A DNA stretch of 64,000 nt. It comes from Blastocatellia bacterium (lineage in GTDB: Bacteria > Acidobacteriota > Blastocatellia > RBC074). This document shows, one piece after another, positions 9,368 through 16,284 of this stretch (the stretch's first letter is position 1; the number at the start of each line of letters is the position of its first letter). A model generated the notes under the pieces. The model had not been told where the DNA came from. It did no database searches and was given only the letters and a program-made list of their open reading frames with translations. A program made the translations under genes and the position numbers. The stretch spans positions 527-64,526 of the forward strand of contig JAYVZE010000179.1 in assembly GCA_043783625.1 (NCBI GenBank). Direction: 5' to 3'.

Positions 9368-10069
9368 TTATGATTTTTTTCTACGTGCTCTAGCTGCGAT
9401 ACCAGCCAGACCCGTTCCGATCAGGATTAATGTTGCTGGTTCGGGAACAGAAGCAGGTGTGCCTTTAAAGATAGAACCAGTTAGGGTTGTAACTTGCAGA
9501 CCAGAAGGTGTTGGCGCAAATGGAGTATTGGCAACCACAAAATCAATGGTATTTTCGCCAAACTTAAATCCAGTTTTAATCAAAAAAGAACTTAAGGCCG
9601 CTGGTACATATCCAGAACCACCACTTGTTGGCAGGTCAATTCCTGTGTCAACACCATTGATGAAAATCCTGACACGATCATCTGCAAAGACAGTACCGTT
9701 GATCGTCGCAGTGGATAGATCATATCCTTGTGTCGGGTCAATTGTAAAAGTCGTCCGATAGGTGTAAGTACCCATGGGAACGTCAAGCAATCCACCAGGA
9801 CCTGGCACGATCCATTTTGATCCGGAAGTGTTAGCTGCCCAACCTGATCCAGGTGACGCATTATCATTGCCAAGCACATAGGCACTCTGTGTACCTGTTC
9901 CAACTACCAGCTTGTAGTGGCTGTCAACCGTACCACCAGCATTATTTGTGCCAGCATCATTAACACCAGTTGTGAAAAGTTTAATTGGGTCTGCTTTCAC
10001 TGTATGAAAAGCAGCCATGCCAAGAAAGACTAAAGTGAGAAGTGATAGTCTCTTGAACGTGAGGATCAT
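9368..10069 (-). CDS. PEP-CTERM sorting-domain secreted protein
   Basis: N-terminal signal peptide. C-terminal VPEPATLILIGTGLAGIAARARRKKS, that is PEP followed by a TM helix and a basic tail. Confidence 0.8.
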   Translation of the reverse strand: MILTFKRLSLLTLVFLGMAAFHTVKADPIKLFTTGVNDAGTNNAGGTVDSHYKLVVGTGTQSAYVLGNDNASPGSGWAANTSGSKWIVPGPGGLLDVPMGTYTYRTTFTIDPTQGYDLSTATINGTVFADDRVRIFINGVDTGIDLPTSGGSGYVPAALSSFLIKTGFKFGENTIDFVVANTPFAPTPSGLQVTTLTGSIFKGTPASVPEPATLILIGTGLAGIAARARRKKS

Positions 10070-12250: not shown

Positions 12251-12935
12251 CCGGAGTCAGTTGATTTCCCTGCAACTGATACGTGGTCGTTTCAATGTTC
12301 AGGCTGTTGTCGGTTTCGTCTGCCACACAGCGTTCGACCTCAAGTTTTCCATCAACAATATTTGATTTAATAATGCCACCTTTGGCTTTGTCTCCGCCTT
12401 CGTATTCCGTCACGCGCTGAAGCTTACCTTCTTCTATTGCGTACACTAATCCTCTGGAAAATGCTCCTTCGCCGCCAGTCGTGTAAGTCACATTGACAAT
12501 TGCTTCGTCTTTGCCGTCTCCATCCAAATCGCCATAAATTGTCTGAACATTATTATCACTGCCTTTGACAGAGGCATCGCCTAATTTGTAGCTCAATTTT
12601 TTGAAATTAATAGTGCGAATATCAGTCAACGGGGAAGGGCTGGGACTGGGAGAAATCGAAGGAGACGGCGAAGGAGAAATAGCTTCACTTGGTGACGGCG
12701 AAGCTTTTATTCCAGTGTTCGGCACCGAGAGTTTTGCGACTTCGGCTTCGTGGTTACGCAATAAAAAAAAAAGGGTAATCAGCCCCAGCACTACTGCGCC
12801 AATTGTTGAGGCGAACAAGATATTACTGGTGCGATGGCTGCGAATAATGCGCTCAGGATCAACATTCTTATAGCCGCATTTCAAGCAAAACGTTGAAGCT
12901 TCTGGTAGCTCCGTCCCGCATTTCATACAAAACAT
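12213..12935 (-). CDS. Zinc-ribbon membrane protein with an SP-repeat linker
   Basis: N-terminal CxxC...CxxC zinc ribbon, a TM helix, then an SPSPSPSISPSPSPSP low-complexity linker. Confidence 0.45.
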   Translation of the reverse strand: MFCMKCGTELPEASTFCLKCGYKNVDPERIIRSHRTSNILFASTIGAVVLGLITLFFLLRNHEAEVAKLSVPNTGIKASPSPSEAISPSPSPSISPSPSPSPLTDIRTINFKKLSYKLGDASVKGSDNNVQTIYGDLDGDGKDEAIVNVTYTTGGEGAFSRGLVYAIEEGKLQRVTEYEGGDKAKGGIIKSNIVDGKLEVERCVADETDNSLNIETTTYQLQGNQLTPVDKKRKKANACS

Positions 12936-12992
12936 ATTTCGTGAATTCTCCTGTGAGGTTTTTCTTTTCGGGCAATGACAGTTCTGACAATG

Positions 12993-13760
12993 TTAGTTTG
13001 AAGTTGGAGGTTTTCCTGTGAGCAAGGGTAACAACTTTTCTTCTACTTCATCAAGATAATGCCGCAGATAAGTATTCTCGCCACGTGTTCGCAGGATGTC
13101 TAATGAAACTCCGTTCCAGCATTTTTGTTCGCGCTCGAAATCAATTTCTAATTCCTCAACAATTCGCTTTGGATTACGCGCCGGATCAGAAGTGTTTGAA
13201 GAATAACGAAGGCGATGAGCTTCTTCACACGGATCAAAATTAAGCCGCTGTCGAATTGCCAAAAGCTGACGTTCTTCTTGTTCGTTCTCGCTATGAAATC
13301 CATTTAAAATCCAATTTTCACGTTTAGGATATTGCACAGCAAGTGCCACAGGAAATTGGTCTTCTATTTCAGTAATCGCCTGATGAATCCCTTGCCTTCG
13401 CTCTTTCTGACTGTCGAGATCGCGTGATAAAACGAGGGCTATAATTTCTCGATCTGGTTGTTCTGCTTTTATTTTCAGTACAAGGCGAATAGCTTTTCGC
13501 GTCACTGCTGTATCAATTCCTTGTGGCTCGTTATTGACATGTCCACGATAACGGGGAAGCCTGTAGTTTTGGTATAAGCTATGAATATTCCTCCATCGAG
13601 TACAACTCTGATTACCTTCGATGGAAGTCCACGAACGGCTATGCGGCAGAATAGTTTCATCCAACCAATCAGGGCTTGCTTCAAGCAAGACGCGATCCGC
13701 CAGCGCACAAACCATTCGCGCATCTGATTCATTTTCCGCCACCACAATAAACTCAGGCAT
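12993..13760 (-). CDS. DUF4276-like protein, partner of the upstream ATPase (AbiLii-like)
   Basis: 255 aa. 8-nt overlap with the ATPase gene. Size and pairing are typical of DUF4276/AbiLii partners of AAA_21 ATPases. The family name is recalled from memory, not searched. Confidence 0.5.
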   Translation of the reverse strand: MPEFIVVAENESDARMVCALADRVLLEASPDWLDETILPHSRSWTSIEGNQSCTRWRNIHSLYQNYRLPRYRGHVNNEPQGIDTAVTRKAIRLVLKIKAEQPDREIIALVLSRDLDSQKERRQGIHQAITEIEDQFPVALAVQYPKRENWILNGFHSENEQEERQLLAIRQRLNFDPCEEAHRLRYSSNTSDPARNPKRIVEELEIDFEREQKCWNGVSLDILRTRGENTYLRHYLDEVEEKLLPLLTGKPPTSN

Positions 13761-14961
13761 TCACCGGCTCCGCTGTATTTTCAATGACCCAGTTTTCACC
13801 CTCGGCGTCCCATAATTCGCCTGTCGTCAAAACTCCTAAAGCGCGTCCAGCATCAGGATGTTCGCTTAATCGTTTGGTATGACTGACGCCGTCTTGATCC
13901 ATATCCATCACCCAGACATCTTCTGGTGCAAGCTCATCAATGATGTAAGGCGAATGACTGGTTAGAATAATTTGCTGATCATGTTTTTCGGCGAAGTTTT
14001 TGAGCGTTTGCATTAATTGACGTTGTGCAAGGGGATGAAGTCCTGTCTCAATATCTTCAAGTAAAAAGATTTTGCTGTCTGTAGAACCATAAAGCAATGT
14101 AAGCAAACCAAGACTCAGCAGGGTTCCTTCACTTATTGAACTAGCTGGTAAGTCATTTGCTGAAACAGTGTCAAAAAATAGTGCTTGCCCGGTTACAGGT
14201 CTTTCCTCAGGGACTGGAAAAACTGACTCGCCATACTTGATAGTTTTAGTTTCTTTCAAGATTACTTTAGCGGGTTTTACTCTAACACGTTTAATGGTTG
14301 GAACAATTTGCTGCAAGGCCGCAAGAATGAGATCGAACTGCTCTTCGTCCGCACCTTTTAGGTAGGAAATTACTGAGGCCAATCCATGTCCTTCTGAAGT
14401 AAACTGGGGTGGTATTTCTTCAGAATAAGACGCAGCGGATAAATTGGAAGAGGTAGCTTTTAAATATTTATATTTTCCTACTTTAAGTAAAGGGGACTGA
14501 ATTTGACTTCCAAATCGGACGGGAGCTTCGACGTCAATGGGTGTTGCAACGAATCCCTCATCATATCCAATTCCTTCTTCCAATATATCTATCCCACCTT
14601 TGATCAAAAATCCCCATGCGGGTATTTTTACGCTGGAATGATTATATTCTGGATAAACTTGTTCCTGGCTTGATGAATATAAAGATGCTTTCCAGTACCT
14701 TTCTTGATCTGTTCCTTCCACACATATTTTTAACTGAAAACTATTTTCTCTGATCATTTTGAGTGATGGGTCGAGATATTTATTATCAAAAGAAAACGGA
14801 GCAGTGATCGCTTGGGACAAATTATCCATAAGTAATTTGATGGACTGAATCAGATTACTTTTACCTGCACCATTCGGGCCAACAAGTGCAGTCACGCGCC
14901 CCGGTTCAATGACCGTATGCGCGTGACTTTTGAAATTCGTGAGTTCGATTTTGGTAATCAT
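13753..14961 (-). CDS. ABC-type (AAA_21/AAA_15-like, OLD-family-like) ATPase (AbiLi-like)
   Basis: Walker A GPNGAGKSN at the N-terminus. C-terminal Walker B/D-loop FLLEDIETGLHP and H-loop LTSHSP. 402 aa. Confidence 0.7.
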   Translation of the reverse strand: MITKIELTNFKSHAHTVIEPGRVTALVGPNGAGKSNLIQSIKLLMDNLSQAITAPFSFDNKYLDPSLKMIRENSFQLKICVEGTDQERYWKASLYSSSQEQVYPEYNHSSVKIPAWGFLIKGGIDILEEGIGYDEGFVATPIDVEAPVRFGSQIQSPLLKVGKYKYLKATSSNLSAASYSEEIPPQFTSEGHGLASVISYLKGADEEQFDLILAALQQIVPTIKRVRVKPAKVILKETKTIKYGESVFPVPEERPVTGQALFFDTVSANDLPASSISEGTLLSLGLLTLLYGSTDSKIFLLEDIETGLHPLAQRQLMQTLKNFAEKHDQQIILTSHSPYIIDELAPEDVWVMDMDQDGVSHTKRLSEHPDAGRALGVLTTGELWDAEGENWVIENTAEPVNA

Positions 14962-14974
14962 CGTTCTCTCCGTC

Positions 14975-15661
14975 TTACTGACTTTTCGCCTGCTGATTGA
15001 CTTTCAATTTATCCGCAAAAATCTTGCGGAATTTCTTGATTTTCGGCGCAATCACGTAGCTGCAATATCCGGCGTTTGGATTGTTGACGTAGTATTCCTG
15101 ATGATATTGTTCAGCCGAATAAAACTCTGAAACTTGCGCGACTTCGGTCACGATGGGGCTGGTGTAGGCTTTGGCTGCCGTCAGTTCGGCGATGAATTTT
15201 TCTGCGATTTCTTTTTGTTCGGGCGAGTGATAATAAATTGCAGAACGGTACTGCGTCCCGACGTCATTGCCCTGACGATTTAATGTCGTTGGATCGTGCA
15301 GAATGAATAGCACTTCGAGGATTTCACGATAGGAAGTGACTTTGGGATCGAAGGTGATCTGAACGACTTCGGCATGTCCACTGTCGCCGGAAGAAACCTG
15401 TTGATAGGTCGGATTTTTGACGTGACCGCCAGTGTATCCAGAGACAGCTTTTTCCACGCCGCGCAATTCATCGAACGGAGCTTCGATGCACCAGAAACAC
15501 CCGCCCGCTACCGTCGCAATTTCTTTTGTGTTGTCCATTTTTTTGTTTTTATCCTTTTTCTCTGAAGGTTCTTTGGTTTTTTGAATCGGTTCGGTGGCAG
15601 TCGCGCTGCATCCCAAAGCTGTTAAGGTTACGAAGCAGATTAAGATCAGAATTTTTTTCAT
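14975..15661 (-). CDS. msrA: Peptide methionine sulfoxide reductase MsrA, lipoprotein-type signal
   Basis: GCFWCIE catalytic motif. N-terminal signal with an ALGC lipobox. Confidence 0.85.
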   Translation of the reverse strand: MKKILILICFVTLTALGCSATATEPIQKTKEPSEKKDKNKKMDNTKEIATVAGGCFWCIEAPFDELRGVEKAVSGYTGGHVKNPTYQQVSSGDSGHAEVVQITFDPKVTSYREILEVLFILHDPTTLNRQGNDVGTQYRSAIYYHSPEQKEIAEKFIAELTAAKAYTSPIVTEVAQVSEFYSAEQYHQEYYVNNPNAGYCSYVIAPKIKKFRKIFADKLKVNQQAKSQ

Positions 15662-15783
15662 AGCTAGTTTCCTTTGTTTCGTGAAAAAATTAATTCACCA
15701 ATCAATAATTTAGGAAGGAAATCATTATATCGCAAAAATGCGCTGAAAGATTCCTGTGAGCTTTACGATTTAGATTTTGAGAT

Positions 15784-16284
15784 TTAGATGGAGTTACAAA
15801 AATAAACCAGATGCTGAAACCCGCGCCAGAAAATTTCTTTTTCGATTTGTAATCCGTTTTTTTCTGCGACGCGGCGCGAAGGCTCATTTTCAGGGCGGAT
15901 CATCGAAATCATCCGGCTTCGATGAAGTTGCTGAAAGCCATATTCAAAACAGGCGCGTGCGGCTTCCGGGGCGTAGCCTTTCCCCCAATAATTTCGATTC
16001 ACGTGATAGCCGACTTCCAGTTCCATCGCTCCGTCAACTTCCTGATGGAGCAGCCCGCAATCACCGATTAATGTTTCTTCACTTTTCAAAATCATCGCCC
16101 ACAATCCATAGCCGTTTTGCTCATAGCTTTTGAATTGTCTTTCCATCAAAGCGGTCAGCATTTCACGATCCAGCGGCTGCGGATAATACAGCATCGTTTC
16201 CGCATCACTCCAAATCAAGAGCATCGCGTCAACATCATTAGGCGTTAGTTCGCGCAAGTAGAGGCGTTCTGTTTCGAGAATCAT
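15784..16284 (-). CDS. GNAT family N-acetyltransferase
   Basis: 166 aa. RimJ/RimL-like GNAT motifs (WGKGYAPEAARA). Confidence 0.7.
   Translation of the reverse strand: MILETERLYLRELTPNDVDAMLLIWSDAETMLYYPQPLDREMLTALMERQFKSYEQNGYGLWAMILKSEETLIGDCGLLHQEVDGAMELEVGYHVNRNYWGKGYAPEAARACFEYGFQQLHRSRMISMIRPENEPSRRVAEKNGLQIEKEIFWRGFQHLVYFCNSI

Follow-up and report, generated by a model that had tools for sequence, protein, structure and literature searches.

Two overlapping genes on the minus strand of a contig from a Blastocatellia bacterium (JAYVZE010000179.1, of which a stretch of 64,000 nucleotides, hereafter the window, was analysed) encode an ABC-type ATPase and a smaller partner protein, which together are a genuine and widely conserved two-gene module. 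We consider it fairly probable that this pair is a co-translated, OLD-like conflict system, in which a sensor ABC ATPase would act together with a separate Toprim-type nuclease, of the same kind as HEC-01, AbiL, MADS3-4 and PARIS. The architecture is familiar; what merits attention is the size of the unannotated family to which the partner belongs and the cassette-like interior of the ATPase.

Both open reading frames (ORFs) were taken to be real genes and not chance ORFs, because relatives of the two proteins are numerous and adjacent in every locus inspected. At least 199 relatives of the ATPase were obtained at E<=1e-10. A word-indexed search retrieved 29 relatives of the partner, and an exhaustive profile search retrieved 1,205 cluster representatives (50% identity) at E<=1e-3, 388 of them below 1e-30; the partner thus belongs to a large family of ~250-aa proteins without annotation. 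Scanning a single genome for each species gave 155 relatives, from which 80 loci were kept, and two metagenomic loci were added. In all of these 82 loci, distributed over six phyla, a relative of the ATPase was found immediately upstream of the partner and on the same strand, and three more distant branches of the partner family were also paired with an ATPase. Named relatives come from metagenome-assembled genomes of Blastocatellia (Acidobacteriota), and a public Logan assembly contains the identical pair in the same context. The original prediction of a 255-aa partner overlapping the ATPase by 8 nt agreed with the ORF coordinates: the junction reads aATGCCTGA, with 8 nt common to both ORFs, and therefore translation of the partner starts at an ATG within the final codons of the ATPase gene, an overlap that suggests translational coupling. 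Most junctions of the 82 loci had this 8-nt overlap, ATGNNTGA, as well. About six copies in this set looked split or truncated. The split or shortened partner or ATPase ORFs were located at L030:7001-7774, L077:6944-7768, L082:7001-7765, L062:6448-7777, L048:10-1324 and L074:3420-4621, and they may be pseudogenes or assembly errors.

The ATPase scored above the gathering scores of the Pfam families AAA_21 (PF13304, 7e-28, 98.9 bits against a cutoff of 27) and AAA_15 (PF13175, 1e-24, 88.2 bits against a cutoff of 32.1), as expected from the original prediction of an ATPase of the OLD/AAA_21 type. Among the PADLOC v2.0.0 models, for which matches were judged by E-value, the best were those of HEC-01A (PDLC04178, 2.7e-35; PDLC04182, 7.1e-35), and mad3 (5.2e-33) aligned end to end over residues 1–386. 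The lower ranks were occupied by AriA (~1e-28), PDC-M07A, PDC-M25A, NsnB, AbiLi (2.6e-23), Old, PtuA and GajA; AbiLi was 17th, after HEC-01A, mad3, AriA, PDC-M07A and others. The top NCBIfam match was MAD3, with 100.1 bits against a cutoff of 420, and hence the protein is not a Mad3. The Walker A, Walker B and H-loop motifs that had been quoted for this protein were all found, and together with a signature-like motif they are intact (Table 1) and are accompanied by the ABC head fold in the AlphaFold2 (AF2) model. This model was built from 60 relatives and reached a predicted local distance difference test score (pLDDT) of 87.7 and a predicted TM-score (pTM) of 0.88; its Foldseek matches were the heads of Rad50, PtuA (Septu/retron), SMC and RecN (~1e-13). 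A housekeeping paralogue of the SMC/RecF/RecN type, the case that had been named among those refuting the original prediction, was not encountered: the SMC_N, RecF and Rad50 models covered the Walker A end alone (residues 1–46 for RecF and SMC, far under the cutoffs), and no coiled coil was present in the AF2 model. At the opposite end of the protein, the tail motif LTTGE.W…GE.W (residues 378–391) is highly conserved, though AF2 confidence is low there (mean pLDDT of 67 for residues 371–380 and of 49 for residues 381–390, with residues 383–387 and 396–402 below 50). The ATPases upstream of distant members of the partner family carry the same tail, which we infer to be a candidate partner-contact peptide.

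Conservation within the partner family was analysed in a set of 76 members, which are 30–74% identical to the partner of the window. Nine positions were invariant (E9, D114, D116, E148, W150, G154, E162, R210 and L232). The AF2 model of the partner (pLDDT 84, pTM 0.83) consists of an α/β core followed by a helical C-terminal part, and the acidic residues E9, D114, D116 and E148 sit at the C-terminal ends of predicted parallel strands (Table 1). A Toprim fold is defined by a Glu after β1, a DxD after β3 and an α/β three-layer fold with sheet order 2-1-3-4; in RloB and DUF4276, the Glu after β1 together with the DxD that follows β3 has been described as the Toprim signature (PMC12065111). Profile searches with the 76 members gave matches to HEC-01B, the most frequent family (several models, up to 16 members, best 6.5e-6), to PDC-M25B (11 members, best 4.1e-7), to Pfam RloB (five members, best 4.1e-5, one inspected match having 12.9 bits against a cutoff of 31.5) and to PDC-M31B (three members, best 7.8e-5), whereas mad4 (0.0084), DUF4276 (E=0.016) and DUF3226 (0.041) were matched by one member each. 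In the ten members inspected, these weak matches fell mostly on residues ~85–185, which comprise the DxD strand and the Glu motif that follows it. A structure of PH0156 (2P62) was the second-ranked Protein Data Bank (PDB) match of the partner model in Foldseek, a marginal one; the same entry has been reported as the PDB match of an AriB homologue of the DUF4435 family (PMC11381338). No meaningful match was obtained when the partner profile was compared with PDB sequences. Because of the invariant E9, DxD and E148 and of the weak matches of its relatives to HEC-01B, PDC-M25B and RloB in the DxD region, the partner was read as a divergent Toprim-like effector; judged from sequence and model, it is probably a very divergent Toprim-like protein.

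The family assigned to the partner in the original prediction did not hold. Its size and context had been taken to fit DUF4276/AbiLii, but the window partner had no DUF4276 (PF14103) match at E<=1 and no RloB (PF13707) match, and none of the 76 members matched AbiLii in PADLOC. AriB/DUF4435 was likewise not matched by the partner or by its 76 relatives. Moreover, DUF4276 and AbiLii are not equivalent, since AbiLii is in the RloB family (PMC10440598) and the DUF4276 homologue is Mad4 (PMC12065111). On the other hand, a partner from an unrelated family, which had been proposed as grounds for rejecting the module, was not found either: no family was matched, and the relatives point weakly to Toprim-type partners. 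From the AbiL-like reading, the two-gene class of ATPase plus Toprim stands, whereas the partner family and AbiLi as the closest ATPase do not.

The most unusual property of the pair is the variability of the ATPase interior. In syntenic Blastocatellia loci, MsrA, encoded upstream of the pair, is 76–83% identical to that of the window and the partner is 75–83% identical in four genomes and 44–47% in two, and the malic enzyme encoded downstream is 86–95% identical among the other Blastocatellia genomes; the ATPase is only 46–54% identical. Comparison of all pairs among five closely related Blastocatellia genomes revealed 82–95% identity in ATPase residues 1–40, 11–30% in residues 41–160, where lengths also differ, 35–47% in residues 161–295 and 72–90% in residues 296–402. 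At the DNA level (blastn), the window and locus L003 are 81% identical through msrA up to codon ~35 of the ATPase, then share no similarity for ~800 nt, and are again 77% identical from position 14058 (Walker B) on through the partner gene. Similarity resumes at 14061 with locus L163 and at 14066 with L164, and the upstream boundary of the block lies at 14858. Outside the block, the ends of the ATPase gene and the partner gene are 77–86% identical between Blastocatellia genomes. The boundaries are sharp, within a locus otherwise 76–95% identical. The predicted strands of the β-rich insert are located between residues 76 and 139. The same ATPase segment is the least conserved in Microcoleus and Nostocales too, in a less extreme form. 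A search of the window for silent cassettes, further copies and meaningful repeats found none, and diversification by a diversity-generating retroelement is unlikely, given the complete lack of DNA similarity between the variable blocks. Both metagenomic contigs with the closest partners end inside the ATPase gene (L163:1-412, 89% identity; L164:1-499, 82%), as one would expect of a gene that varies among strains at this point, and many other partner-bearing contigs are only 1–2 kb long; these contig ends suggest assembly breaks at a strain-variable region.

A mechanism of holding, recognition and release can be proposed for the pair by analogy with PARIS, in which sensing of the trigger by AriA sets the Toprim nuclease AriB free (PMC11464382), and with ATPases of this type that neutralise TOPRIM_OLD toxins in toxicity-neutralisation assays (PMC10440598). 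The ATPase would oligomerise and keep the partner inactive. The part that recognises a molecule derived from the invader would be its hypervariable β-rich insert, located between Walker A and the signature motif. This recognition, coupled to ATP binding or hydrolysis, would free or activate the partner, whose Glu9, Asp114-x-Asp116 and Glu148 would coordinate metal for the cleavage of nucleic acid, either tRNA or DNA. The cleavage would then stop phage replication or kill the cell. The data themselves establish that both genes are real, to which family the ATPase belongs, how strictly the two are paired, which acidic residues are conserved and that the variable block exists; the Toprim fold and nuclease activity of the partner, the sensing by the insert, the holding and release of the partner and an antiviral role are inferred.

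In Blastocatellia, the pair occupies a fixed place in the gene order GNAT, msrA, ATPase, partner, malic enzyme and Zn-ribbon protein, with gaps of 12–22 nt, and the synteny from msrA to the malic enzyme gene was fixed in seven genomes. In the window, the array spans positions 12935–16284 (minus strand) and comprises co-directional, tightly packed genes for GNAT, MsrA, the ATPase, the partner and the Zn-ribbon protein, with 13 nt between msrA and the ATPase gene and 57 nt between the partner and the Zn-ribbon gene. A gene encoding an ACT-domain malic enzyme (475–476 aa) lies between the partner and the Zn-ribbon gene in all the other syntenic loci (L163:1172-2613, L003–L006, L010 and L011); as only a 57-nt gap (12936–12992) exists at that place, the genome of the window has lost or moved this gene. 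No terminator-like site was found on the coding strand between msrA and the pair, and in the promoter and terminator scan the counts were not above those of shuffled sequence. The flanking genes are unrelated housekeeping and accessory genes, as had been noted (GNAT, MsrA, the Zn-ribbon protein, ABM, O-methyltransferase and PhyH were seen), and no defence genes flank the pair in the window. A metagenome scan with MsrA for presence or absence of the locus returned distant taxa only, with no synteny. One locus of the Blastocatellia type (GNAT, msrA, pair and malic enzyme), whose partner has 74% identity to that of the window, was present in L004 (CAZWAK010000005.1), titled 'uncultured Heliobacteriaceae bacterium'; this bin may be mislabelled or contaminated. 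Elsewhere in the window (9368–10069, minus strand), a 233-aa secreted protein ending in a PEP-CTERM-like sorting signal (VPEPATLILIGTGLAGIAARARRKKS) was recognised by eye.

Overall, the distribution is patchy. The hosts are mostly Cyanobacteria, and include Acidobacteriota, Rhodothermales, Bacteroidota, Chloroflexota (Chloroflexaceae), Desulfobacterales and Methylococcaceae. In cyanobacterial loci the neighbours are often Uma2 nucleases, PIN/VapC with antitoxin, PemK and XisH/XisI, and an integrase is also frequent near the pair. Type I restriction-modification genes were not adjacent in any of the 82 loci; L001 has one BsuBI/PstI restriction gene at a distance of ~7 kb. In Nostocales, a gene for an XisA-like tyrosine recombinase of 433–472 aa sits immediately upstream of the pair (L046:3567-7768; also L039, L040, L044, L047, L058, L064, L066 and L077). 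The recombinase gene in turn borders on a gene for a NifK-like protein (PF00148, 1.7e-130) and on a further fragment, which we take to resemble the 3' end of nifD. Because the XisA-like gene adjoins the NifK-like gene and the nifD-like 3' end, the pair is likely cargo of the developmentally excised nifD element in Nostocales.

Three other explanations were considered. The pair might be an addiction or selfish module of the toxin-antitoxin style, in which the ATPase neutralises a Toprim-like toxin and which is kept by post-segregational killing or by drift, with no dedicated antiviral role. We find this rather unlikely: the antitoxin-toxin behaviour of AAA ATPase/TOPRIM_OLD pairs in the assays cited above, the tight translational coupling of the two proteins and the classical toxin-antitoxin genes (PemK, PIN/VapC and XisH/XisI) that are often nearby would all fit it, but it leaves unexplained a sharply bounded hypervariable ATPase insert that is different in every genome, and in Blastocatellia the pair keeps a stable, syntenic place on the chromosome and had no match in the plasmid search. 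In addition, toxin-antitoxin and abortive-infection roles are not mutually exclusive. It is still less probable that the pair is a housekeeping machine for nucleic-acid repair or processing, SbcCD/Rad50-Mre11-like or RNase M5-like, co-expressed under stress with msrA and the malic enzyme gene. The fixed position and short gaps of the Blastocatellia locus, the lack of a terminator-like site downstream of msrA and the Rad50, SMC and RecN heads among the best structural matches of the ATPase are what such a machine would lead one to expect. Its patchy distribution in many phyla, in unrelated contexts and with some disrupted copies, is not; neither are an ATPase far less conserved than its flanks, with an insert that cannot be aligned, the absence of a coiled coil, profile hidden Markov model affinity to HEC-01A, mad3, AriA and PtuA instead of RecF, RecN or SMC, and the Nostocales pair as cargo of an integrase-bearing element.

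The third explanation concerns the partner, which could be a non-catalytic α/β adaptor or regulator whose acidic residues would be binding sites for a ligand or for the ATPase; the ATPase would then be the effector itself, or would signal to factors encoded elsewhere. The window partner lacks a significant structural or profile match to a catalytic Toprim, and its ~100 helical C-terminal residues have motifs of their own (DPCEEAHRLR, R210 and W215) that are absent from ordinary Toprim domains. However, the E…DxD…E at strand ends is invariant across 76 diverse members, the recurrent weak matches are solely to Toprim-type partner families of the same ATPase kind, and the corresponding residues of HEC-01B and HEC-04 fall, when aligned, on the BpOLD metal site, so that we regard a non-catalytic role as improbable. 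Several observations weigh against the conflict-system reading itself. The window partner had no PADLOC match at E<=1 and lacked meaningful ones in Pfam, NCBIfam and PHROGs, and because it matches no PADLOC model, a PADLOC run would call no system here. The Toprim-family matches of its relatives are weak (E 1e-7 to 1e-2), under the family thresholds and confined to a minority of members, a convergence of weak signals with no decisive match. In the only published assay, HEC-01 failed to protect E. coli from any of the phages used, an outcome that would also suit an addiction module. The Blastocatellia pair is not in a defence island, and its locus, a tightly packed array, looks housekeeping-like. 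Lastly, no relative of the partner was found in viral contigs, and tblastn with both proteins gave no match in plasmids.

Among the known systems of this kind, HEC-01 ('Hma-embedded candidate 01'; HEC-01A ABC ATPase plus HEC-01B TOPRIM) has the same two-gene architecture and provides the best PADLOC match of the ATPase. Its second component is not matched by the window partner; the HEC-01B profiles cover ~190–220 aa, whereas the partner has ~250 aa with an extra helical C-terminal part, and relatives of the partner match HEC-01B weakly (E>=6.5e-6) and over the DxD region alone. The contexts in which the pair was found are chromosomal and non-Hma. In AbiL, from Lactococcus plasmids, and in RloA/RloB, from type I restriction-modification loci, a small Toprim-related protein likewise comes after an ATPase of the AAA_21 type. 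However, AbiLi is a weaker match to the ATPase than HEC-01A or mad3, the partner does not score as AbiLii or RloB, and the pair is neither plasmid-borne (plasmid search) nor located at type I restriction-modification genes (82 loci). With Mad3-Mad4 of MADS (ATPase plus DUF4276) the pair shares an ATPase aligning end to end with mad3, and Mad4 is in the Toprim superfamily; nevertheless, the MAD3 score was under the cutoff, the partner is not a DUF4276 protein, and no DNA methyltransferase or other MADS genes were found near the pair.

PARIS (AriA ABC ATPase plus the DUF4435 Toprim nuclease AriB) is matched through AriA, but not through AriB; the ATPase of the pair is smaller (402 aa against ~55 kDa) and, unlike PARIS, the pair had no representative in phages or satellites (viral contig search). 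The PtuA proteins of Septu and retrons are the closest solved defence ATPases both by structure (8eea, 3e-13; 9o4a; 9e90) and by sequence (8ee4, 7e-8), although TM-scores are ~0.45–0.55, their inserts differ from that of the ATPase and the effector in these systems, PtuB, is an HNH nuclease. Class 1 and 2 OLD nucleases and GajA of Gabija follow the same logic of ABC ATPase plus Toprim in a fused protein, whereas here two separate genes are involved. The top PDB sequence match of the ATPase was the OLD-family protein 6p74 (2.9e-8, N-terminal residues 1–49 only); no TOPRIM_OLD match and no UvrD-like GajB gene were found here.

Table 1. Positions, in window coordinates, of the two genes and of the features discussed in the text.
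Feature	Position	Strand	Basis
ABC-type ATPase gene, 402 aa, AAA_21/AAA_15 family, HEC-01A/mad3-like	13753..14961	minus	ORF, Pfam, PADLOC, AF2 and Foldseek
Walker A GPNGAGKS, residues 28-35	14857..14880	minus	G28, N30, G33 and K34 invariant in 60 relatives
Hypervariable central block, codons ~35-301	14059..14857	minus	No blastn similarity to L003, L163 or L164
Segment of greatest protein variability, residues 41-160, a β-rich insert that follows the Walker A helix	14482..14841	minus	Five-genome comparison; AF2
Long predicted β-hairpin, residues 223-265	14167..14295	minus	AF2 strands 223-243 and 246-265; block pLDDT 96-98
ABC signature-like SEGT, residues 277-280	14122..14133	minus	G279 and T280 invariant, S277 nearly so, in 60 relatives
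Walker B and D-loop IFLLEDIETGLHP, residues 298-310	14032..14070	minus	D303, E305, H309 and P310 invariant in 60 relatives
H-loop TSHSP, residues 334-338	13948..13962	minus	H336, S337 and P338 invariant in 60 relatives
Conserved C-terminal tail LTTGELWDAEGENW, residues 378-391	13789..13830	minus	L378, T380, G381, E382, E389 and W391 invariant in 60 relatives
8-nt gene overlap ATGCCTGA, partner start codon within the ATPase stop region	13753..13760	minus	Sequence
Partner gene, 255 aa, unannotated family, putative divergent Toprim-like nuclease	12993..13760	minus	No profile match; AF2 model; weak matches of family members
Invariant Glu9, right after predicted strand β1 (residues 3-8)	13734..13736	minus	76 members; AF2
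Invariant Asp114-x-Asp116 (DxD), right after predicted strand 106-113	13413..13421	minus	76 members; AF2; weak HEC-01B/RloB matches here
Invariant Glu148 in (K/R)RE-x-W-x-L-x-G-F, after predicted strand 138-142	13317..13319	minus	76 members; AF2

A bolder reading, which we consider possible but doubtful, is that the pair represents a distinct and abundant (~1,200 clusters) unannotated immune branch of the ATPase-plus-Toprim type, captured by the nifD element in Nostocales. The ATPase interior between Walker A and Walker B would then be an exchangeable specificity cassette, present at one address in a different, unalignable version in each Blastocatellia genome and bounded in a recombination-like manner at codons ~35 and ~300, a receptor polymorphism similar to the swapping of target-recognition domains in HsdS. 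If the conflict-system reading is true, a family of ~250-aa proteins missed by Pfam, PADLOC, NCBIfam and PHROGs would be Toprim-type effectors of OLD-like defence, and current counts of OLD-like defence systems would be too low for Cyanobacteria and for the Acidobacteriota of soil. A bounded hypervariable block at a fixed locus would also be a natural experiment from which to learn what part of ATPases of this type reads the invader, a question that HEC-01, AbiL and MADS3-4 pose as well, and a narrow, allele-dependent specificity may explain the failure of HEC-01-type systems in heterologous assays.

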